Shown: positions 2,018 to 24,734, counted from the first letter of the stretch. The stretch is 28,584 nucleotides of DNA from an uncultured Gemmatimonadota bacterium (GCA_964626665.1 CAZVGK010000035.1:1-28584); one strand, 5' to 3'. Made by a program: numbers and translations. Notes: generated from the sequence alone by a model not told the origin.

Positions 2018-3729
2018 TAGGCTTTCTCCTTCAATTGGGATGAGATTATCTGATATTCCTTCAGCAACTCCTCCTCCTTGACCTCCTCTCCCCTTTCCTC
2101 CATCTCTTCCATCTGAGACTTCAACTGGGCCATCCTTCTCCTCAGAGCTTCCCTTTTGATGGCCCGGACATAGTCGATTAAGGCCTCCTCGGGTTCCTCC
2201 CCCCTGAATGAAGCCTGGGTAATTAACCTGGTTAGCTCCGGGTGTTCATCGATGAGGGAGGCAGGGGAGAAACTCCCTCCCCTCTGAGCTGTCTGGTAGA
2301 TGGAGCTAAGGAGTTGGGCCACCGGAGATGATCTAAGTTTGTCTATTTCCAGCCTTTCCTTTACCCAATCCACCTTCTGCGGATGGATGAGAAGGTAACC
2401 AAGAATGGCAACCTCTGCCCTCTCTGGCCTGTATAAGGGGGGGGAGGAGAGCTCACCCCCCCTCTGCTTGAGGGAAGAGGAGATAAAATCTTCCTCGATA
2501 TGGAGGAGTTGGGCTGCCTTCCTTACCCACAGCCTCCTTTTTAAGGGGTCTTTTATATGGGCTAAGGTGGAGCCAATCTCCTTTATCGTCACTAGCTTGC
2601 CAGCCACGGTAGTGGTCTTGTGTTGTCCTTTGAGCCTCTGCAAACGGCTATCCAAGAAATTCTCCGCCTCGGCAAGGCATCTGGCAAATCCCCCTTTTCC
2701 CTTTCTCACCAGGCCATCCGGATCCTCCCCGGGGGGAAGGGTGAGCAGTTCCACCTCCAAGCCAGCCTCTAAGAGGAGTTCCATCCCCCTTTGGGCCGCG
2801 GTCTCACCTGCCGCATCGGCATCATAACTGATTACCGCCTTAGAGGCATAGCGGGAGAGGAGTCTGGCCTGGTCCAGGGTGAGTGATGTGCCCAGAGAGG
2901 CCACCACATTTCTGAAGTCAGCCTGGTAGAGGGTGAGAAGATCGGTATATCCCTCTACAACGATGGCCCATTCCTGTTTCCTGATGTGCTCCTTTGTATT
3001 GAAAAGGGCATAAAGGAGGGAGCCCTTGTGATAGATGGGTGTCTCATTAGTGTTTAGGTATTTCGGCTCCTGGGCACCGGGGAATGCCCTCCCTCCAAAG
3101 GCCACTACTCCGCCGGAAAGGTTAAAGATGGGGAAGATAAGCCGATCCCGGAATCGGTCGTAATACCCTGATCCCTTCTGGCTCCTGACAGCCAGACCGG
3201 CCTTGCAGAGTAGATCTGGGGAAAGGGACTTCTTCTGAGCCTCCCTCAACAGGTTATCCCATCCCGCAGGGGCATAGCCCAACTTGAACTCTTCCCAAAG
3301 CCCCTCCTCATAACCCCTTTCCCGCAGGTAATCTTTGGCCTTGAAAGAGTCCTGCAACCTGAGTTGGAAAAAGGAGAGGGCTAACTGGTTGGCCTTGAAG
3401 AGGAGGTCATTCTCCTGGTGAGGCATTCCAGATTGGGGAATCTGGATGTTTGCCCGGCGGGCCAGGAATTTTAATGCCTCCCCAAATCCCATTTTCTCGT
3501 GCTCCCTGAGGAAGGTAAAGATGTTCCCTCCAGCCCCACAGCCAAAACAATGGTATATCTGTTTCTCCCGGTTTACGCTGAAGGAGGGGGTCTTTTCGGT
3601 GTGAAAGGGACAGAGGCCAAACCAGTTTCCCCCCTTTTTTTTCAGAGGGACGTATTCGGAGATGAGCTCAACGATGTCATTGCTCTCCCTGATTTTGTCT
3701 ATTAGCTCCTGGCTTAATCTGGGGCTCAA
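2017..3729 (-). CDS. dnaG: DNA primase
   Basis: CHC2 zinc finger ([11 protein letters not shown]...CFGC), [23 protein letters not shown] motifs VEGYTD, YDADAAG and DPD. TTG start with AGGAG upstream. Confidence 0.97.
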
Positions 3730-8710: not shown

Positions 8711-10282
8711 ATGTTCAGAATAGTCTGGCTTATTTTCCTGCTTTCCGCTTTCCTCTGCCCCTCTGGCCTGAAGGGTTTTGCCCTGCCCGCTCCCACCCGT
8801 TGCCCCGCGGGGCTGGCCTGGGATGGGAGTAGCCTCTGGCTGGCGGACTGGAGGGAGGCCAAGATCTATGAGATCGATCCCCAGTCGGGCCGGGTAAGGG
8901 GAACCTTCCCTGCACCCTGTCCCAGGCCAACCGGTTTGGCCTGGGTCAAGGGCAATCTCTTTGTGGCTGATGGGGAGGGGATGATCTATGGCTATAACCC
9001 TTATAATGGGGAGGTAAGGGTGAGGTTCCCGGTCCCTGGGTCTGCACCTGCCGGCCTGGGATGGGATGGCCATGCCCTGATCACTGCCGCTGGCAAGACG
9101 ATTTATCTGTTTAATCCATTGGATGGAACCACCTTGGACTATTTTCCCGCTCCCTATCTTGGCTCCCAGGGAGTCTGCTTTGACGGGAGATATATCTGGT
9201 TGGCTGACCGGCGGAGGGATGAGCTCTACCCTCTTCGTCCCCAGGACGGAATACCTGTGACCTCGCTGGCCTCCCCCGGCCCTTATCCCTGCGGCCTGGC
9301 CTGGGATGGGAAATCGATTTGGAATGTGGACTTTCAGACGGATAGCCTCTACAGGATTGATCCCGCCGAGTTTCTCCCCTTTCGGGTCACAGACTATCGA
9401 AAGGTGGAGTTGGAGTTTATCCATAGATTGGAAAATCAGGGCCCGGGCAGGGTAAAATCAGGTCAGATAGCCATAGCCCTGCCCACCGACTCCCCGCAGC
9501 AGAAGTTACTCTCCCCTATCAGGTATAAGCCCCAGCCTGCTCAGGTGGTCACCGATCGCTGGGGGCAAAAGGTTGCCCTTTATTCTCTCCAAGACCTGGG
9601 CCCTGACCAGCGGGTGGAGGTAGGTTACAGGTTGAGGGTTAGGTTAGGGGAGATCAGCTACACACTTTTCCCAGAGAGGGCGGGGAGGCTAAAGGAGATA
9701 CCCCAGGAGGTGAGGGATAGGTATCTGGTTGATGGTTCCAGGTATCTAATCAGCGGGGACTTGGTAAAGGGCAAGGCCAAAGAGATAACCGCTGGGGAGA
9801 GGAATACCTACTGGATAGCCCGGAAGATATTTAATTGGGTAATCAGCCACCTGGAGTATGAGAGGGTAGGGGGATGGGATGTGGCCCCTACCCTGATCAA
9901 GCGGGGAACGGGGTCCTGTTCCGAGTATAGCTTCCTCTTCATCGCCCTCTGCCGGGCAAGTGGTCTTCCCGCCAGGTTTGCCGGAGGGACGGCGATGAGG
10001 GGAGATGAGACCTCGGTGGACGGGGTTTATCATCGCTGGGCAGAGGTCTACCTGCCAGGATATGGTTGGGTGCCCGTAGACCCCAGTAGGGGAGACAGAA
10101 GGTATGGAGCAGACAGGATAGCCGCCATCGGATCACTATCCAACCGCCTCTTTGTCACTACCCGCGGAGGGGGTGACTCCCAATATCTGGGTTGGGACTA
10201 CAACTCCTCCTCCCGCTACACCTGCCAGGGGAGATGTGAGGTGAAGGAGGAGGCCTTCTTCATCTGGCGCCCCGCCGAGTAG
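8711..10282 (+). CDS. Secreted beta-propeller (GLAWDG repeats) plus transglutaminase-like cysteine protease domain protein
   Basis: Signal peptide, about five P-x-GLAWDG-type blades, Cys-His-Asp triad motifs GSCSEYS, HRWAEVY and WVPVDPS. SD AAGGAGGTG. Confidence 0.85.
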   Translation: MFRIVWLIFLLSAFLCPSGLKGFALPAPTRCPAGLAWDGSSLWLADWREAKIYEIDPQSGRVRGTFPAPCPRPTGLAWVKGNLFVADGEGMIYGYNPYNGEVRVRFPVPGSAPAGLGWDGHALITAAGKTIYLFNPLDGTTLDYFPAPYLGSQGVCFDGRYIWLADRRRDELYPLRPQDGIPVTSLASPGPYPCGLAWDGKSIWNVDFQTDSLYRIDPAEFLPFRVTDYRKVELEFIHRLENQGPGRVKSGQIAIALPTDSPQQKLLSPIRYKPQPAQVVTDRWGQKVALYSLQDLGPDQRVEVGYRLRVRLGEISYTLFPERAGRLKEIPQEVRDRYLVDGSRYLISGDLVKGKAKEITAGERNTYWIARKIFNWVISHLEYERVGGWDVAPTLIKRGTGSCSEYSFLFIALCRASGLPARFAGGTAMRGDETSVDGVYHRWAEVYLPGYGWVPVDPSRGDRRYGADRIAAIGSLSNRLFVTTRGGGDSQYLGWDYNSSSRYTCQGRCEVKEEAFFIWRPAE

Positions 10283-12198: not shown

Positions 12199-12575
12199 GA
12201 ACTTAGCGACCGAAGGGAACTAAGTTCTAATTCCAAGCTAAATTCTCTGCTGTGGGAAGCATCTCCTGATGCCGATTATCAAGGTCAGGAGACCTTTCCC
12301 ACAAAATTCACTGAGGTGGCAGAACCCCGATTCTGCCACCCACCACCGTAAGACGGGGCATCTGACGGCTCAGGAAGAAACCTTACCCTAAAGTGCGGTA
12401 GAAAACCAGACCCTCACCACGGATTAGCACAGACAACCCAGAAAGGGATTTGCCCCGGTCATGTTCCGTGAAATTCCGTGTAGTTCCGTGGTCAAAGTTC
12501 TCCTTCTACCTGGTTTTCCTGGGTCGGGACGGGTAGTCGATGGTTCCTATGAGCTGGCAGAACCCCCTTTCTGCT
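12199..12575. repeat. Cluster of mixed REP-like elements
   Basis: GAACTTAGCGACCGAAGGGAACTAAGTTC (12199), GTGGGAAGCATCTCCTGATGCC...CCCAC (12252), GTGGCAGAACCCCGATTCTGCCAC (12316), ACCACGGA...TCCGTGGT (12416-12492). Confidence 0.7.
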
Positions 12576-18894: not shown

Positions 18895-21800
18895 CTATCT
18901 GATCAAAACCATCTTCCTCGTCTGCACAAAATCCCCAGCCCTTAACCGATAAAAGTAGATGCCACTGGTGAATGAGCTTGCATCCCACCTGGCGGTCTTA
19001 TATCCGGCTTTCTGGTTCCCATCAACCAGAGTTGCCACCTTCTGCCCTAAGATATTGTAAACCTCCAACCTCACCCGACAATCCCTGGGCAAGGCATACC
19101 TGATCTCAGTGATAGGGTTAAAGGGGTTAGGATAGTTCTGGGAGAGGAAGAAGGTTGTCGGTAATCCAGACAAGTGTCTGGAGGGCACCGGAACGCCAGG
19201 CTCCAACACAATTGTGCTATCTATACTGCCATCATTACCCACATCAATCTCAAGGATAACTTGACTTTCGCTTAGAGAGTCCCAATCTTGCGGGGTGAAC
19301 TTGTGAGTGGTGCTTTCACCAAGGGAAAAATCAGAATAGAAAGTGGAGTCGGCATGAGCTCCTTTCTGCTCAATCATAAGGTCATAGGTTTTGGGCCCAC
19401 CCCAATTGATATAAGAGAAAGAGGCGAGATCAGGACTGACCACAAAGTTCACGCTATCGCCAGCGGAGATGGAGGTGTTGAGCACGGTGAAGATCCGCTC
19501 GCCAGATGTGTCGGGTAGTACCTTAATCAGGGAGGAAGAGTAACTTTTTGTCGAATCAGAAGTGATGTAACTTGCTGTGCTGGTGCTGTCAACGTAGGAA
19601 ACCCGATCAATCGTAGTGGTGTCAACGGACGCCCCCTTGATTTGAAACAAATTGCCGCCGGCAAAGAGGTCAAGGTCGTAGGCACCTGTGTCCACGCCCG
19701 TAATGGAGGTCGTGTAGCAAATGTCAAACGGCAAAAAATAATGTTCAGGAATCGCTCCTGTATCCTGCTCCCAGAATAATATCGGACCTGCGCCAGGAAT
19801 CTCCGCTCGGAAATCCCCGTCTATCCAGCCCAGATGTCGTCCTTGGTCATCAGTAAAAAGGGTTTGCACCGGCCCCATAGCGAAGGTAACAACAATAGTG
19901 GCATCTTTTTCTGGTAATGAGTGCGGTCCATCGAGTATTGTATCTGGGACGGCAAACAAAGTTCTTATGGTATCAGCTCCACTCCAACCACGATAACTCC
20001 AAGTGTTTTGTGTCAGATTAACTGTAATCTTACGTCCTCCTACTCCAGGTGCAGAGGGGTCGTAGACAATTATCTCACCACTATCGGAGGTTACCGGATA
20101 GGCATTTATTACAACCATTACATGACCTCGGCGTGATGTATCGCCATCAGCTATTCTAATGCGGGCAATATGGACGGTGCTTGGGCGGTCATTCCCATGT
20201 TCAATATTATCGAGGAGCAGATTAAATACCGTCTTAGGGTCACTGTTTTCGGGTGACTCGTGCAGATACTTCAGAACCTCAGCACTTTTCTGATGCCAAT
20301 GGTATTCTTCGATCAGGTGGTCTAATTCTGGGATGAGATGCCCATCTTTATAGCGATCAAGCCCGTAAGTAGAATCAGCCTCTTGTCCAACCAAAGACTG
20401 GTCGGTAACATCAAGAACGCGGGTAAAAAAGAGTATACTGGTAGCCGACATGCCGAAGCAACTACCTTCATCATTGATGCTGTTGTGACTTTTTTCGAAA
20501 ACTTCAGCATAAACGGTGGCGCCAGGATACTGATTAATCGCCCCCTGAAGGTTAAAAGCATCCACAAATTGAGCCCAATCATCGTCGGGGTTTGGATCAC
20601 TGTAATTCTTGAAACTGTACCCGTCCCGATTAAGCACAAACTCGCCAAATCCCAGAGTGAACATATGTTCACCCCAATCCCAAATGTAGTCATCGGCAGC
20701 TTCAGCATAAGCTCGAACTACAACCGTTCGACAACCTATCCGAGGCGTTTCCCAGGAGTGCGATCCACCATCAGGAGTGCTTTCAGTAATTGTATCCGAA
20801 AATGTAGTGCCACCGTCACGTGAACAGAGCAATCTTATATGGTCTATACCAGTTCCCTCAGTAGTCCAGGTGATGGGGTAAGTATCACCTCCAAACCAGA
20901 CCTCTCCACTTTCGGGTGAGATGAGGGTAATGTTAGTTGTTGGTAGTTGAAAATCTACAGTTGTGGTTTCGTCTTCTGCGACAACAACATCTGCCTCCGT
21001 TTTGGTGACATAACCCAACTTTGATGCCCAGACGATATAAACGCCTGGACTGACCTCAAGGCTATAAGTTCCATCCCCTAAGGTCCTTGTAGAATCAATG
21101 AGTGTGAACCCCTGCATAACCTCGATTAACACATCTGGTATGGGAGGTGCTGGTGGAAAACGAATTTCTGTGACGGTCCCAGCAATAACGCCCGGTGGTT
21201 GAGGGCTGATGGTAAATGGAGCATCGCTTACATCATAAGGGTCACCGTCGGCTGCATCGGAGACTTTCACCAGGCAATTGGTTGAAGGATCATCAGGGAT
21301 TGTCCAGGGGTGGGTGCCATCATTTTCCGTGCTGCTCACAATTGGTGTCCAATCTGTGCCACCATTGGTGGAGTATTCTATTTTGACATTCCCGGTGAAG
21401 TTCTGCGAAGTCCAGGTGATGTCGTGCTGGGAGCCCACCATCCAGTTTTCCCCTCCGTTCGGTGAGGTTACAGTGAGGGTTGGCTCTGGTTGAAACGAGA
21501 TGGGTGGAGAAGAAACAAATTGCATCTGCTCAAAAGAATCACCAATAATAATTCGGTTCTTGAACCACGTGGCAGATGTGGTATCCCCCTTGAAAAAGCA
21601 AACCCCTATTTGGGAAGCAGTGCAAACTACATCAAACACACCGTCACGGTCAAAGTCGTATGCATCACCATAGCCAGCTCCGCCTTTGTTTTGGCCGCTC
21701 TCATCAGAGGGGTTAGCATCGTATGCTTCTCCAACTTTGGTGAAGCTACCATTACCGTTTCCTAACCAAAGCCAGGTCTGTCCTGGATCTCCATCATCGT

Positions 21801-22644
21801 CTTGCCCTTGAATTAAGTCATCGTGGCCGTCTCCGTTAAAATCTCCTGCCACAACAGTAACTGAGCCACTCTGTCCAGAACCTCCTGGGTTAGTGGTTTC
21901 AAGCGAACCAATGTGATAAAAAGTGCCATCTCCATTACCGAGATAAAGGCACATTTCATTTCCTGAACTCGGATCCCAGTAATGCATCAAGACGAAATCG
22001 AGATTTCCGTCTTCATCAAAATCTCCAACATCGACATCCCGAATGTTTTCATAACCCAGATCACCCACCCAACAAGAAGAGGTGACATCGCTGGTAGACA
22101 TAACAAAGTTATTGTCCCCTTGATTGGTAAAAAAGTAAAGCTGAGCATCAGCAAAGATAATAAAATCGTGTAGGCCATCGTTATTAAAATCTCCCGAACA
22201 AGCAGGTCGTGAGAAAGGAAATCCTGTAGAGGGATAAGGTAGATCTGTGGTAATTGTATCTCTTTCGAAGGAGATACTACCTTGGTTAAGATATAAAATG
22301 CATGTTCCATTCTGATCGTTTGCCACGATATCCAATAAGCCATCGCCGTTGAAGTCGTCAATAGTCCCGCCTATAGCTTCAGAGCCCAGACTGTCCACCA
22401 AGATTTTGGCAGTAAATGTGGTATCGCCATTGCTTGGATAAAGATAAATATTGTTCCCTACTCCAACCACAAAGAAAATGGGACTATTGACGGACACAGA
22501 CTCCTGAGAAAGCACCAATTGCCTCTGTGCTGGTGTGGGTTCATCAGTAAGATTGTTGCCAGGGGTAATCCTGGCTGCCCAAGCCACCCCAACGAACAAT
22601 AAGCCCAAGACACAGAGCATTCCAATGGCAAATCCTCTTTTCAT
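18895..22644 (-). CDS. Large secreted protein: FG-GAP repeats, Ig-like domains, carboxypeptidase-regulatory-like domain, putative papain-fold domain and T9SS-type-A-like C-terminal sorting domain
   Basis: Signal peptide, DFNGDGLLD/DFNNDGLHD/DFDEDGNLD repeats, two SP(N/E)(G/S)GExW...ITW domains, GSCFGMS...GHVMVV...YDP, and LSQNYPNPFNP...SGIYFYRL...KMVLIR. Confidence 0.88.
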   Translation of the reverse strand: MKRGFAIGMLCVLGLLFVGVAWAARITPGNNLTDEPTPAQRQLVLSQESVSVNSPIFFVVGVGNNIYLYPSNGDTTFTAKILVDSLGSEAIGGTIDDFNGDGLLDIVANDQNGTCILYLNQGSISFERDTITTDLPYPSTGFPFSRPACSGDFNNDGLHDFIIFADAQLYFFTNQGDNNFVMSTSDVTSSCWVGDLGYENIRDVDVGDFDEDGNLDFVLMHYWDPSSGNEMCLYLGNGDGTFYHIGSLETTNPGGSGQSGSVTVVAGDFNGDGHDDLIQGQDDDGDPGQTWLWLGNGNGSFTKVGEAYDANPSDESGQNKGGAGYGDAYDFDRDGVFDVVCTASQIGVCFFKGDTTSATWFKNRIIIGDSFEQMQFVSSPPISFQPEPTLTVTSPNGGENWMVGSQHDITWTSQNFTGNVKIEYSTNGGTDWTPIVSSTENDGTHPWTIPDDPSTNCLVKVSDAADGDPYDVSDAPFTISPQPPGVIAGTVTEIRFPPAPPIPDVLIEVMQGFTLIDSTRTLGDGTYSLEVSPGVYIVWASKLGYVTKTEADVVVAEDETTTVDFQLPTTNITLISPESGEVWFGGDTYPITWTTEGTGIDHIRLLCSRDGGTTFSDTITESTPDGGSHSWETPRIGCRTVVVRAYAEAADDYIWDWGEHMFTLGFGEFVLNRDGYSFKNYSDPNPDDDWAQFVDAFNLQGAINQYPGATVYAEVFEKSHNSINDEGSCFGMSATSILFFTRVLDVTDQSLVGQEADSTYGLDRYKDGHLIPELDHLIEEYHWHQKSAEVLKYLHESPENSDPKTVFNLLLDNIEHGNDRPSTVHIARIRIADGDTSRRGHVMVVINAYPVTSDSGEIIVYDPSAPGVGGRKITVNLTQNTWSYRGWSGADTIRTLFAVPDTILDGPHSLPEKDATIVVTFAMGPVQTLFTDDQGRHLGWIDGDFRAEIPGAGPILFWEQDTGAIPEHYFLPFDICYTTSITGVDTGAYDLDLFAGGNLFQIKGASVDTTTIDRVSYVDSTSTASYITSDSTKSYSSSLIKVLPDTSGERIFTVLNTSISAGDSVNFVVSPDLASFSYINWGGPKTYDLMIEQKGAHADSTFYSDFSLGESTTHKFTPQDWDSLSESQVILEIDVGNDGSIDSTIVLEPGVPVPSRHLSGLPTTFFLSQNYPNPFNPITEIRYALPRDCRVRLEVYNILGQKVATLVDGNQKAGYKTARWDASSFTSGIYFYRLRAGDFVQTRKMVLIR

Positions 22645-22696
22645 AATACCCCCTTGGTTTTAAAGGTTTTCCGTGTAGGGATAGACATTTACTACT

Positions 22697-22822
22697 GGGG
22701 CCACAAATAGGTTACATGTCATTGCGAGCGCAGCGAAGCAATCCAAAACGCTGAATGGGGGTTTAGACTATGAGATTGCTTCGTCGCTACGCTCCTCGCA
22801 ATGACACTTGAAATACCAATGT
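22697..22822. repeat. RPE-like palindromic element
   Basis: TGTCATTGCGAGCGCAGCGAAGCAATC...GATTGCTTCGTCGCTACGCTCCTCGCAATGACA. Confidence 0.8.
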
Positions 22823-22938
22823 GCAAACTATAATGTGACCTGAGTAATATGTCTGTCCATTATCATTTATCGGACTCCGATATATCGGAGTCAAGCCTAT
22901 CCTTTTCGGACAAGGCTAAAGCCCTTTCCCTACAAGTA

Positions 22939-23041
22939 ATTGACTATGTGAGAAAGGTCTGCTGACCTCGATCCTCGGCATCGGGAGATGCCTCCCACAC
23001 TCTTCTACCTGGCTTTAGCCGAGGGTTGATAGGGCTTTAGC
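22939..23041. repeat. About 100-bp composite REP unit, copy 1 (copy 2 at 23348-23448)
   Basis: ATTGACTATGTG...GGTCTsCTGACCTCGA...TCGGCATC...GATGCCTCCCACA...TCTACCyGGCTTTAGCCG as a direct repeat. Confidence 0.8.
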
Positions 23042-23121
23042 CCGTTCACTGGACTCAAACCCACGGGCCTGAAAGGCCCTTAACCCTGCACTAAAGTGCG
23101 GTAGAATTTTCTGATACAGCC

Positions 23122-23169
23122 AAAGAAAAACCGACCTGCATTCAAGTGAGATACCTTGGCAGATCGGCT
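23122..23169 (-). terminator. Rho-independent terminator
   Basis: 11-bp stem AGCCGAUCUGC/GCAGGUCGGUU followed by UUUCUUU. Its two G-U pairs are valid only on the minus strand. Confidence 0.6.
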
Positions 23170-23294
23170 GTTTCTTCCTATTGGACTCCAGCTTTGAATG
23201 CCTGCTGAAGAACTATTGTTTTCGCTTCCCGACTCCCCCTCACCCAATCCTGTCCTGTCTGAATGGTAAGGTATTCTCATCATCAGGAACCTTT
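23122..23294 (-). ncRNA. Candidate structured leader (riboswitch/attenuator) or sRNA
   Basis: Has its own promoter, several long complementary segments, an 8-bp potential pseudoknot and an intrinsic terminator. See findings. Confidence 0.45.
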
Positions 23295-23299
23295 CTTTG

Positions 23300-23328
23300 A
23301 AGATAACTACTCAGGCTTGTTCTGTCAA
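23300..23328 (-). promoter_or_regulatory. Sigma70 promoter
   Basis: TTGACA-17 bp-TATCTT. Confidence 0.7.
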
Positions 23329-23347
23329 CACCTTTTTCCTGCAATTC

Positions 23348-23712
23348 ATTGACTATGTGGGAGAGGTCTCCTGACCTCGACCATCGGCATCAGGGGATGC
23401 CTCCCACAACCTCTACCCGGCTTTAGCCGGAGTTAAAAGGACTTTAGCTTCTTTGGAGTGCTGTGACTCCTGTCACAGCATGCGTCAACAGAAATTGACG
23501 CACTCCATAATGGTCCTAAGGGGGCCCTTAACCCGCACTGAAGTGCAGTAAAAGTTGGAGATTGCTTCGGCTTGCCACTTCGCTGCCGCTCGGGGCAAAC
23601 CTCGCAATGACGGCTAAGGGAATCGTCATTGCGAGGAGCGAAGCGACAAAGCAATCTCGATCTACCCAGCCTTAGCCCGTCTGTGGGTAAAAATGGGGAC
23701 ACTCCCCATTTT
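23348..23712. repeat. Nested REP cluster
   Basis: Copy 2 of the 22939 unit, TGGAGTGC...GCACTCCA doublet, GCACTGAAGTGC hairpin, back-to-back RPE-like halves (23557-23658), and AAAAATGGGGACACTCCCCATTTTT. Confidence 0.8.
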
Positions 23713-23728: not shown

Positions 23729-24157
23729 CTACATATCGCTTTTCAGGAGAGAATTAACCTTTTTGGCAAATTTCTTTAAGCCAGCAACCTCTTCCGAAAG
23801 AACCCGATACACCTCCTCAAAATCCACCCTCCAGTAGATATGAATTGCAAGATTGCGAAAACCAGCAAGATCTGCAAGCTTCATATACTCTGGCTCTTCT
23901 AAGAATTTCCCCTCCCACAAAGACCTAAAGACATCCCTATATCTTTCTGGCCTTCTCAGTCCAAGCTCCGCAATAAGGTGACTTCCAATATCAATACAAG
24001 ATTGAATGGCGCCAATCACTGCATAGAGCACCATATTTTGTAGGTCACGATTGGAGAGGAGTTCTTCCTGCGAGATCTTAGCTTTGTACCGCTGAAGGTC
24101 CTCCAAAAATTTGCTCAACTCATCAAGGTGTTTGAGAATGCTCTCTTTTTCTACCAT
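23729..24157 (-). CDS. HEPN (DUF86/HepT-like) RNase toxin
   Basis: FRNLAIHIY matches the Rx4HxY motif. Overlaps the upstream MNT gene. Confidence 0.9.
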   Translation of the reverse strand: MVEKESILKHLDELSKFLEDLQRYKAKISQEELLSNRDLQNMVLYAVIGAIQSCIDIGSHLIAELGLRRPERYRDVFRSLWEGKFLEEPEYMKLADLAGFRNLAIHIYWRVDFEEVYRVLSEEVAGLKKFAKKVNSLLKSDM

Positions 24158-24564
24158 AACTCAATCTTTCTGCTCAGGGACTTATTATACTCGTCTAAGA
24201 CGAATAAAAAGTCCAGGTACTCGATGATTGTCCTTGCCTCAAATCGTACTCTCTCCCCCTTATGCCGGACAAAAATGGGATTCCCAGTTTTGATTACCTC
24301 ATACTGGAAGTAGAGGGGGGCACTGTTTAGCGTCCTAACATCTACATCTCCATACCTGGGGTTCAGGAGACCCTCTACCTCTCTGGACAGTTGGAGAGAA
24401 TACTTGAGGTAATTAAACTGCTCTTCCCCACGGAGAAAGACCGCTAAGTCGATGTCTTTTGGACTATCTGCATGCAAAAATGACCCGTAGAGATAAGCAA
24501 ACAAGATCTCAATCCTCTTTTCGAGGAACTTACTAATGAGGGAAACAACCTCGTCTTTACTCAT
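24151..24564 (-). CDS. Minimal nucleotidyltransferase (MntA-like antitoxin)
   Basis: AYLYGS...DIDLAV and VDVRTLNSAP. Start is ATG 24564 or 24576. Confidence 0.9.
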   Translation of the reverse strand: MSKDEVVSLISKFLEKRIEILFAYLYGSFLHADSPKDIDLAVFLRGEEQFNYLKYSLQLSREVEGLLNPRYGDVDVRTLNSAPLYFQYEVIKTGNPIFVRHKGERVRFEARTIIEYLDFLFVLDEYNKSLSRKIELW

Positions 24565-24705
24565 AACCCTGTGCATATAGAACTTAGCTCCCTTCGGTCG
24601 CTAACTTCTCCAAGGAACCTTGGCGGCGTAAAGCTTTGCGGTAGGGGCAAAAAGTGGAACCACCCTGTTTTTGCTTCTAACTCCCCATCATCAAAGCTCT
24701 TCGTC

Positions 24706-24734
24706 AAGATACTAAGTAAGATCTATCCTGTCAA
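24706..24734 (-). promoter_or_regulatory. Sigma70 promoter of the MNT-HEPN operon
   Basis: TTGACA-17 bp-TATCTT. Confidence 0.7.

Follow-up and report, generated by a model that had tools for sequence, protein, structure and literature searches.

Multicopy structured RNAs, probably derived from a c-di-GMP-I riboswitch, in an uncultured Gemmatimonadota bacterium

What kind of RNA is made from a promoter that is soon followed by an intrinsic terminator, ahead of a gene for a large secreted protein? This question is raised by positions 23,122 to 23,328 (minus strand) of a 28,584-nucleotide (nt) stretch of DNA from an uncultured Gemmatimonadota bacterium (GCA_964626665.1, CAZVGK010000035.1:1-28584; the whole stretch is called the window below). 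A first-pass annotation, made from the sequence alone, saw here a promoter-driven, structured and terminator-ended RNA of unique sequence, upstream of and co-directional with the gene of a 1249-amino-acid (aa) secreted protein, and proposed either an ON-type riboswitch or attenuator controlling this gene or an independent small RNA (sRNA). The promoter, the structure, the terminator and the position relative to the gene are as described, and the idea of riboswitch ancestry is supported by a chain of homology to the c-di-GMP-I riboswitch (c-di-GMP, cyclic di-GMP). The window copy is a member of the main group (type 1; the intermediates are called type 2) of a genus-restricted family of RNAs of about 180 nt, with about 17 copies per genome. 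Between the two proposals we lean, with as much doubt as conviction, to the second: a riboswitch-derived, constitutively terminated, free-standing small RNA, and not a ligand-gated leader of the 1249-aa gene. We think that the ligand-gated decision is gone because the antiterminator has been lost on both strands, because the substitutions concerned tidy the terminator, and because several copies have no gene to control. We do not think that the type 1 RNAs are junk, since their new helices and junctions are conserved, they have kept their promoters, and copies are still present in several species.

Copies of the element and their common fold

The genome to which the window belongs (3.17 Mb in 63 contigs, 99.65% complete) has BLAST matches to the element in 12 places, at 69-83% identity; nhmmer gave 13 copies and then, with a profile, about 17. 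A covariance model (R1), built on 11 close copies and the four-helix structure given below, finds 17 copies in this genome, 17 and two in its sister genomes of the same genus (G002 and G001, respectively, the latter 90% complete), and none in four genomes of the only other sampled family of the phylum. By BLAST, three of 41 relatives have a match, all within the genus. Exact-pattern scans added five loci on genome contigs, one of them in a Candidatus Zixiibacteriota metagenome-assembled genome, and ten loci in metagenomes; the stretch 22500-23500 is also matched in 24 listed data sets, salt-marsh metagenomes (DNA contigs) and, at a small share, one cold-seep run, with no RNA run among them. 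The sequence taken at first for unique is thus one of 17 in its genome, and many dispersed copies had been named by the first-pass annotation itself as the mark of just another repeat.

In alignments of the paralogues the similarity extends from about 25 nt upstream of the -35 hexamer to the U-tail; nearly all copies keep both hexamers and the terminator, and copies persist in three species and several metagenome populations. A predicted promoter and an intrinsic terminator of its own, both kept in the paralogues, are what would be expected of an independent sRNA gene. A mobile element, for example a repeat of the miniature inverted-repeat transposable element type that carries a promoter by chance, is a very improbable explanation. 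The family is multicopy, forms tandem pairs, lives in surroundings rich in toxin-antitoxin genes and repeats, and has one copy beside a DUF772 transposase; against this, 23040-23400 has no terminal inverted repeats (seed 7, length 10), the copies are bounded by promoter and U-tail and flanked by other, independent repeat families, and an identity of 70-83% combined with RNA-type covariation is unlike recent transposition.

Folded singly, 23 copies share four helices: H1; H2, nested in H1 beyond a conserved internal loop (GAUGAGAAUA facing GGGA); H3; and H4, the terminator. Their places in the window copy are given here, together with the downstream gene (double changes refer to alignment A3, defined after the list).

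23323-23328, minus strand: -35 hexamer TTGACA, from direct reading and a promoter scan, aligned in nearly all paralogues
23300-23305, minus strand: -10 hexamer TATCTT after a 17-nt spacer; transcription would start near 23293
23290-23295, minus strand: leader GAAAGG, like the AAAGG of J1/2 in the c-di-GMP-I consensus (a probable equivalent), and resembling a ribosome-binding site before a conserved AUG
23282-23289, minus strand: 5' strand of H1, UUCCUGAU, partner of 23226-23233; seven of eight pairs with double changes
23272-23281, minus strand: conserved internal-loop strand GAUGAGAAUA, with the conserved AUG, from paralogue alignments
23238-23271, minus strand: H2 hairpin, CCUUACC plus AUUC, loop AGACAGGACA, then GGAU-UG-GGUGAGG, from folds; ten of 11 pairs with double changes
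23226-23233, minus strand: 3' strand of H1, GUCGGGAA, aligned by nhmmer with a type 2 profile to the P2 3' strand of the canonical aptamer on contig C42
23211-23225, minus strand: linker L1, GCGAAAACAAUAGUU, in the position of J2/3 and the 5' base strand of P3 in c-di-GMP-I; its pairing with the terminator arm is lost
23186-23210, minus strand: H3 hairpin, CUUCAGC, loop AGGCAUUCAAA, GCUGGAG, an apical remnant of P3, from folds and covariation
23169-23185, minus strand: conserved purine-rich linker L2, UCCAAUAGGAAGAAACA, from paralogue alignments
23122-23168, minus strand: intrinsic terminator H4, GCCGAUCUGC, a 19-nt loop, GCAGGUCGGU, then UUUUUCUUU, with a 5' arm that was once the P3/P1 3' strand (consensus AGCCggGcUGCc)
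18895-22644, minus strand: co-directional gene of 1249 aa with FG-GAP, CarboxypepD_reg and Por_Secre_tail domains, a type IX secretion cargo, 478 nt past the terminator

The promoter hexamers score 10 of 12 in the promoter scan. H4 has an uninterrupted stem and an energy of -20.7 kcal/mol; the terminator scan missed it because its loop is 19 nt long. As a whole, the 186-nt RNA folds at -59.1 kcal/mol (z = -2.80), with one of 200 shuffles equally stable.

The four helices are supported by compensatory changes. A3, an alignment of 54 hits (43 distinct) fitted to the model, has 88.0% of its cells paired, versus 36-53% with a slid partner, and double changes in 27 of 36 pairs versus 14.1 ± 2.2 in shuffles (0 of 500 as high); one H1 pair switches from G-C to A-U eight times. 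A model-independent MAFFT alignment, A1, with 21 of the 26 collected sequences (one partial row and four that are highly divergent being excluded), gives 87.6% of cells paired and double changes in 12 of 32 pairs, versus 5.2 ± 1.7 in shuffles (again 0 of 500). Taken alone, the 11 closest type 1 copies are 91.6% paired with only two doubly changed pairs, not above shuffles, because they vary too little; the support therefore needs the diverged copies. Consensus folding of the 21-sequence alignment returned only the terminator because H2 is misaligned in four rows, and the structure was then supplied by hand.

Both the minimum-free-energy fold and this family consensus use other helices than the model of the first-pass annotation. 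All the pairings listed there can be read directly in the window: a helix P1 (23268-23279 with 23147-23157, 11 bp with one bulged A, -12.4 kcal/mol; called first-pass P1 here, to keep it apart from P1 of the aptamer), a helix P2 (23241-23249 with 23162-23170), the CUUCAGC/GCUGGAG hairpin, whose loop GCAUUCAA (23194-23201) is complementary to UUGAAUGC (23138-23145) in a proposed pseudoknot, and an 11-bp U-tailed hairpin (23122-23169). Across the family, as judged on A1, that P2 has 66.5% of its cells paired, with 169 of 500 shuffles as high, and the pseudoknot 58.0%, with 372 of 500 as high. Cognate loop duplexes of the pseudoknot average -2.42, versus -2.67 for permuted and -2.44 for shuffled partners; they were computed for the 31 sequences (out of 43 distinct ones) whose H3 loop measures 8-16 nt, whose terminator loop measures 9-22 nt and whose 5' segment has 10 nt or more. 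Neither helix holds across the family, and with them goes the idea that they and the terminator are mutually exclusive. The first-pass P1, in which AAGGUA of the terminator loop pairs with the internal-loop strand, fares differently, and its weak covariation is no more than suggestive: 68.7% of cells are paired, a value reached by only two of 500 shuffles, while double changes in seven of 11 pairs, versus 4.7 ± 1.3, are matched by 43 of 500 (A1). Its cognate duplexes average -4.93; permuted partners give -4.42 (fraction 0.05) and shuffled loops -3.52 (0 of 300), and the duplex of the window copy is the strongest.

The conserved AUG raises the question of a small-protein gene, with GAAAGG as ribosome-binding site, the AUG at 23283 and a frame of 67 codons (33-66 or more elsewhere). 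Of 23 aligned copies, 20 have the AUG, 6-8 nt after the purine-rich motif, and the frame is open in most copies, yet we give this explanation scarcely any credit. From one subgroup to another the frame shifts while the nucleotides themselves stay conserved, the stops are scattered and some frames run through the terminator, the peptides are of low complexity, and substitutions per codon position (72/92/94 and 83/93/107 in two groups of six copies) have no third-position excess. Moreover, the A and the U of the AUG belong to H1 pairs that covary with their partners.

Another motif of this region, CUGAUGA, might recall a kink-turn, a C/D box or a hammerhead. Its G varies (CUAAUGA, CCGAUGA) and covaries with the H1 partner, the GA that follows is not conserved, and there is no hammerhead match in Rfam, so that these readings were rejected.

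Ancestry of the family and fate of its switch helix

The Rfam search that had been proposed as a check returns nothing for the window copy: there are no matches in the window at the gathering threshold, and at E <= 10 the stretch 22800-23600 gives only Anti-Q and snoR116 noise, with no match from the c-di-GMP-I clan. It was a divergent paralogue that first gave a weak match to c-di-GMP-I-GGC. In the same genome, C42:20556-20661 reaches 65.7 bits with RF03167, whose gathering score is 59, and likewise 65.7 bits with RF01051, whose gathering score is 35; it is, as far as its sequence can tell, a bona fide aptamer of the c-di-GMP-I clan. Sub-threshold matches in this genome are at C15:16988 (24.8 bits), C38:17641 (21.9) and C49:3337 (20.6), and G002 has matches on its contigs C85 (72 bits), C103 (46.1) and C105 (28.3). 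The window's genome contains one canonical aptamer, five type 2 copies, in which the 5' half is rebuilt, and eleven type 1 copies.

The intermediates connect the two ends of this series. A profile made only of type 2 sequences (12 copies) matches the window copy over its full length (E = 5.2e-16), the canonical aptamer on C42 from the P2 3' strand to the terminator (E = 1.4e-13) and that on C85 of G002 (E = 1.3e-11). A profile made only of type 1 sequences reaches type 2 (E = 1.6e-11 to 6e-5) and meets the C42 copy at the terminator only (E = 0.3), so that the homology between type 1 and canonical copies is indirect. We conclude that the family very probably descends from a c-di-GMP-I riboswitch; this ancestry we regard as firm, and the exclusion of c-di-GMP-I by eye in the first-pass annotation does not stand.

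By this supported chain the family is homologous to c-di-GMP-I (GEMM-I, RF01051) and its variant c-di-GMP-I-GGC (RF03167; clan CL00126). They share an AAAGG leader (the GAAAGG of the window copy probably corresponds to AAAGG of J1/2, an equivalence that we infer from sequence), the 3' strand of P2, a GCGAAAA junction resembling GCGAAgCc, a 3' strand ACAGCCGAUCUGCC resembling acAGCCggGcUGCc that doubles as the 5' arm of the terminator, and a position upstream of a gene for a large surface or secreted protein. Since the 3' strand of H1 is that of P2, H1 and H2 together are an extended P2 arm, with a long hairpin in place of the GNRA loop: the consensus P2 has an AAA/GAC internal loop and a GNRA tetraloop, whereas the arm of the window copy consists of H1, a 10/4-nt internal loop and H2 with the apical loop AGACAGGACA. 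In c-di-GMP-I the base of P3, AgCc(A)cGG with CCggGcU, closes the three-way junction; its counterpart in the window copy, AACAAUAG with CCGAUCU, reaches only -2.1 kcal/mol. Unlike c-di-GMP-I, the window copy has no three-way junction, no competition with the terminator and, as predicted, no transcribed 5' strand of the aptamer's P1, and it belongs to a family with about 17 copies per genome.

The difference between type 1 and its relatives lies in this base helix. In canonical and type 2 copies the strands ACAAAGCC(N)CGGGGUC and GAyAGCCGGGyUGCC(G)AAGG form the base of P3, at -11 to -22 kcal/mol in most of them, and its 3' strand doubles as the 5' arm of the terminator. This layout is that of an ON switch, as predicted from truncated folds of type 2 copies, so that the ON logic proposed for the window copy survives in these paralogues, as P3 base versus terminator, and is lost in that copy itself. 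The corresponding strands of type 1 are AACAAUAG and CCGAUCU. The duplex of L1 with the 5' arm of the terminator averages -10.5 kcal/mol over the 14 rows of type 2 or canonical copies and about -3.4 over 26 rows of type 1 (one valueless row omitted); that of the window copy is -2.1. Terminator stems are uninterrupted in type 1 and have an internal mismatch in type 2 and canonical copies; the mean hairpin energies are alike (-16.9 and -16.8, respectively). When 35 family members were folded without the 3' arm of the terminator, the type 1 copies had no common partner for the 5' arm. Nor did an exhaustive comparison of alignment columns, made on 23 type 1 sequences, find a conserved competitor of the terminator, the best candidate being a 5-bp GUCGG/CCGAU. 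In both type 1 and type 2 the promoter lies directly at J1/2, so that probably no 5' strand of the aptamer's P1 is transcribed (the predicted transcript of the window copy starts about 3 nt ahead of GAAAGG); canonical copies have a leader of about 60 nt ahead of the aptamer.

The free-standing RNA that we favour would then come about as follows. A sigma-70-type promoter would start transcription just ahead of the aptamer remnant, and the RNA would fold into an extended P2-like arm (H1 and H2 with the conserved purine-rich internal loop) and the apical remnant of P3 (H3). In canonical and type 2 copies the P3 base would compete with the 5' arm of the terminator; in type 1 this base appears to have been destroyed on both strands, by the same substitutions (CCGGGCU to CCGAUCU) that would give an uninterrupted terminator stem. 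With the base lost and the stem uninterrupted, transcription should end at about 23122-23126 whatever the ligand state, and the conserved single-stranded purine-rich linkers and loops of the resulting small RNA may act in trans through a putative protein or RNA partner.

One could also see in type 1 a non-functional, decaying relic, that is, a dead riboswitch that persists as a dispersed repeat. The helices that define the aptamer have been lost, for many copies there is no evident target gene, dispersed repeats abound between the genes of this genome, and an orthologous pair (C5:12567 here and its counterpart on C1 of G001) has lost the canonical terminator. We nevertheless consider this unlikely: promoter hexamers, terminator and helices are maintained with compensatory changes at an identity of only 70-83%, the unpaired linkers are conserved as well, and the copies are found in three species and several metagenome populations.

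Neighbouring genes and the case for a retained switch

Five of the 17 copies in the window's genome lie 233-979 nt upstream of co-directional genes with a Por_Secre_tail domain (short open reading frames without a family in the gaps were ignored). The genes in question code for the 1249-aa protein of the window, a 405-aa RCC1 protein (C54), a 734-aa S8 peptidase (C5), a 1068-aa beta-helix protein (C15) and a 639-aa FG-GAP protein (C42); three of the five copies, including that of the window, are type 1. With 107 Por_Secre_tail matches in the genome, the binomial probability of at least five in 17 is 2.5e-4 at p = 107/3000 (3000 genes assumed) and 0.022 at p = 0.1, for paralogues that are not fully independent. 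Segmental duplication was rejected as the source of this association, as short dispersed repeats are all that the spacers of the five loci have in common. Another three copies are followed by toxin-antitoxin pairs in the same direction, and two pairs of copies are tandem. At least five copies are convergent with the next gene (C27, C12, C5:50195, C38 and C4:39684).

Among the 14 copies of G002 whose surroundings could be seen, two precede Por_Secre_tail proteins and two more precede proteins with a C-terminal FlgD_ig only, a domain that overlaps Por_Secre_tail in other proteins here. As to canonical and near-canonical copies, those on C42, on C85 of G002 and on C62 of G001 directly precede Por_Secre_tail proteins, that on C103 of G002 precedes a PqqD/radical-SAM cluster containing one such protein, and that on C120 of G001 precedes an M1 peptidase cut by the contig end.

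These neighbourhoods bear on the main rival of a free-standing RNA, namely a working cis-acting variant riboswitch or attenuator, which we judge appreciably less probable but a serious contender. Here a remodelled aptamer, made of the H1/H2 internal loop and the junction of L1, H3 and L2, would sense a ligand, be it c-di-GMP or another, and an alternative pairing such as the first-pass P1 would control how much transcription passes the terminator and enters the cargo gene. The descent from an ON-type riboswitch speaks for it, and so does the fact that all the canonical or near-canonical copies examined precede large genes, four of five with Por_Secre_tail (in the case of C103 further downstream); three of the eleven type 1 copies, the window's included, still precede cargo genes, the three copies ahead of toxin-antitoxin pairs could be added to these, and the genome encodes six GGDEF proteins. 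On the other side, with the P3 base gone and the 5' strand of the aptamer's P1 apparently absent, the known pocket would not be able to form as it does in c-di-GMP-I; nothing conserved competes with the terminator stem, the first-pass P1 touching its loop only; long gaps, in which there are other dispersed repeats and promoter-like sites, separate the copies from the start codons; and at least five copies are convergent with their neighbour, one of them (C5:50195) being without a promoter.

Several points weigh against the free-standing RNA that we prefer. The association with cargo genes fits a retained cis role. The purine-rich junctions are strongly conserved, as a new ligand pocket would be, and the first-pass P1, with its weak covariation, could be part of a switch that we have not recognised. 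These three points, cargo-gene enrichment, weak P1 signal and conserved purine junction, are the reason why the variant switch remains the main rival. The covariation itself comes from non-independent paralogues and, in A3, from an alignment fitted to the model; a search for trans targets of the type 1 RNA gave no lead; and the promoter, the 3' end and the abundance of the window RNA are all inferred.

Candidate partners of a trans-acting RNA are few. No Hfq was found in the genome, 99.65% complete as it is; an 82-aa open reading frame at C11:24087-24215 (minus strand) scores 26.4 bits for CsrA, borderline to the Pfam cut-off of 27, and 15 type 1 copies have a mild excess of GGA motifs over shuffles (84 versus 62.2 ± 6.2).

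It is tempting, though rather speculative, to see in type 1 a new class of RNA derived from the c-di-GMP-I riboswitch, which could be either a variant riboswitch with a new signal or an exapted set of trans-acting sRNAs. For the former, a pocket might be formed by the H1/H2 internal loop and the L1-H3-L2 purine junction, perhaps docked by the contact of the first-pass P1, and a different signal might gate type IX secretion cargo and toxin-antitoxin genes; for the latter, about a dozen sRNAs per genome might act together, for example by sponging up a second messenger or a CsrA-like protein. If either option were true, the canonical, type 2 and type 1 forms of one genome would be a living series of riboswitch conversion. 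Riboswitch variants are rarely caught in transition, and the presence of canonical, intermediate and derived forms in a single 3.2-Mb genome makes it possible to test directly how a cis ligand sensor becomes a stand-alone RNA or a sensor of new architecture. Through the family, c-di-GMP sensing is also tied to type IX secretion cargo genes, in an uncultured lineage of the Fibrobacteres-Chlorobi-Bacteroidetes (FCB) type. Our literature search found no paper joining c-di-GMP riboswitches and type IX secretion (Porphyromonas papers that name c-di-GMP, riboswitch and the type IX secretion system are unrelated), and none joining Zixibacteria and riboswitches. For annotation, about 30 loci missed by Rfam in two genomes can now be named.

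Related systems and surroundings of the copies

Multicopy families of paralogous sRNAs such as Qrr and LhrC are well known. Like them, the present family has several copies that have diverged and carry a promoter and a terminator each, and its single-stranded motifs are conserved; unlike them, it has a much higher copy number, and its genome has no detected Hfq and only a borderline CsrA-like reading frame. Terminated riboswitch transcripts are used as small RNAs in Listeria, in the case of the S-adenosylmethionine (SAM) riboswitch RNAs SreA and SreB; elements of this kind keep ligand binding and a cis role, whereas type 1 appears to have lost the switch. The c-di-GMP-I-GGC variant was reportedly defined in a 2017 survey of riboswitch variants. 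PMC5737381 has one unrelated passage on c-di-GMP-I and no mention of "GGC".

A precedent for a stand-alone riboswitch RNA, by analogy, is merRNA of Bdellovibrio bacteriovorus, presented in PMC3627812 as a non-coding RNA of the c-di-GMP-I type with no conserved downstream open reading frame, proposed to act in trans as a store or sponge of c-di-GMP. The same paper cites, as reference 36, riboswitch elements that also act as trans sRNAs. merRNA is a single RNA of 445 nt with an intact aptamer, whereas the family studied here is of about 180 nt, multicopy, remodelled in its core and known from sequence alone.

Some copies depart from the common plan. The type 1 copy at C5:50195-50381 (locus L024, 7396-7582), which has no promoter, lies directly 3' of the stop region of the S8 peptidase cargo gene and a hairpin, and faces an Omp85/POTRA gene in convergent orientation; its RNA might be produced as a 3' untranslated region. 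In the orthologous pair C5:12567-12752 and C1:1970-2156 (G001), the 3' part is unlike that of all other copies and has no canonical terminator. Tandem pairs are common (C49:2967-3149 with 3307-3491 in the window's genome; C114:1269-1451 with 1602-1781 and C2:8862-9049 with 9212-9426 in G002), and two of them join type 2 and type 1 copies, in either order. At C103:4444-4756 of G002 (locus L092), the 46.1-bit c-di-GMP-I match is followed by a second fragment with a P3 3' strand and a terminator; the genes downstream code for PqqD, a 408-aa Por_Secre_tail protein and a radical SAM/SPASM protein, in a cluster like those for ribosomally synthesized and post-translationally modified peptides.

Many small toxin-antitoxin modules (PIN, HepT/MNT, MazF, ParE, DUF433/DUF5615, DUF4258, AbiEii) are found around the RNA copies. 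On C12 (locus L022, 2206-3432) a DUF772 transposase reading frame lies immediately downstream of an RNA copy and converges with it; its insertion may have cut this RNA off from a former downstream gene.

The genome is unusually rich in short intergenic repeats. One of about 110 nt (ggctaaagcc...gggaggcatc...gatgcc...), with at least 33 nhmmer matches across the genome, flanks the RNA gene of the window on both sides (23335-23445 and 22927-23037, both on the minus strand), occurs also at 12248-12317 (plus strand), and is independent of the RNA element. Another, of about 45 nt, lies just past the terminator at about 23065-23109 (minus strand) and is present on dozens of contigs at 86-98% identity. 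The upstream neighbour of the window RNA is a toxin-antitoxin pair, MNT (24151-24576) and HepT (23729-24157), and upstream of this pair, at 24706-24734 (minus strand), there is a second exact TTGACA-17-TATCTT promoter, similar to the promoter region of the family (nhmmer E = 3.6e-5).

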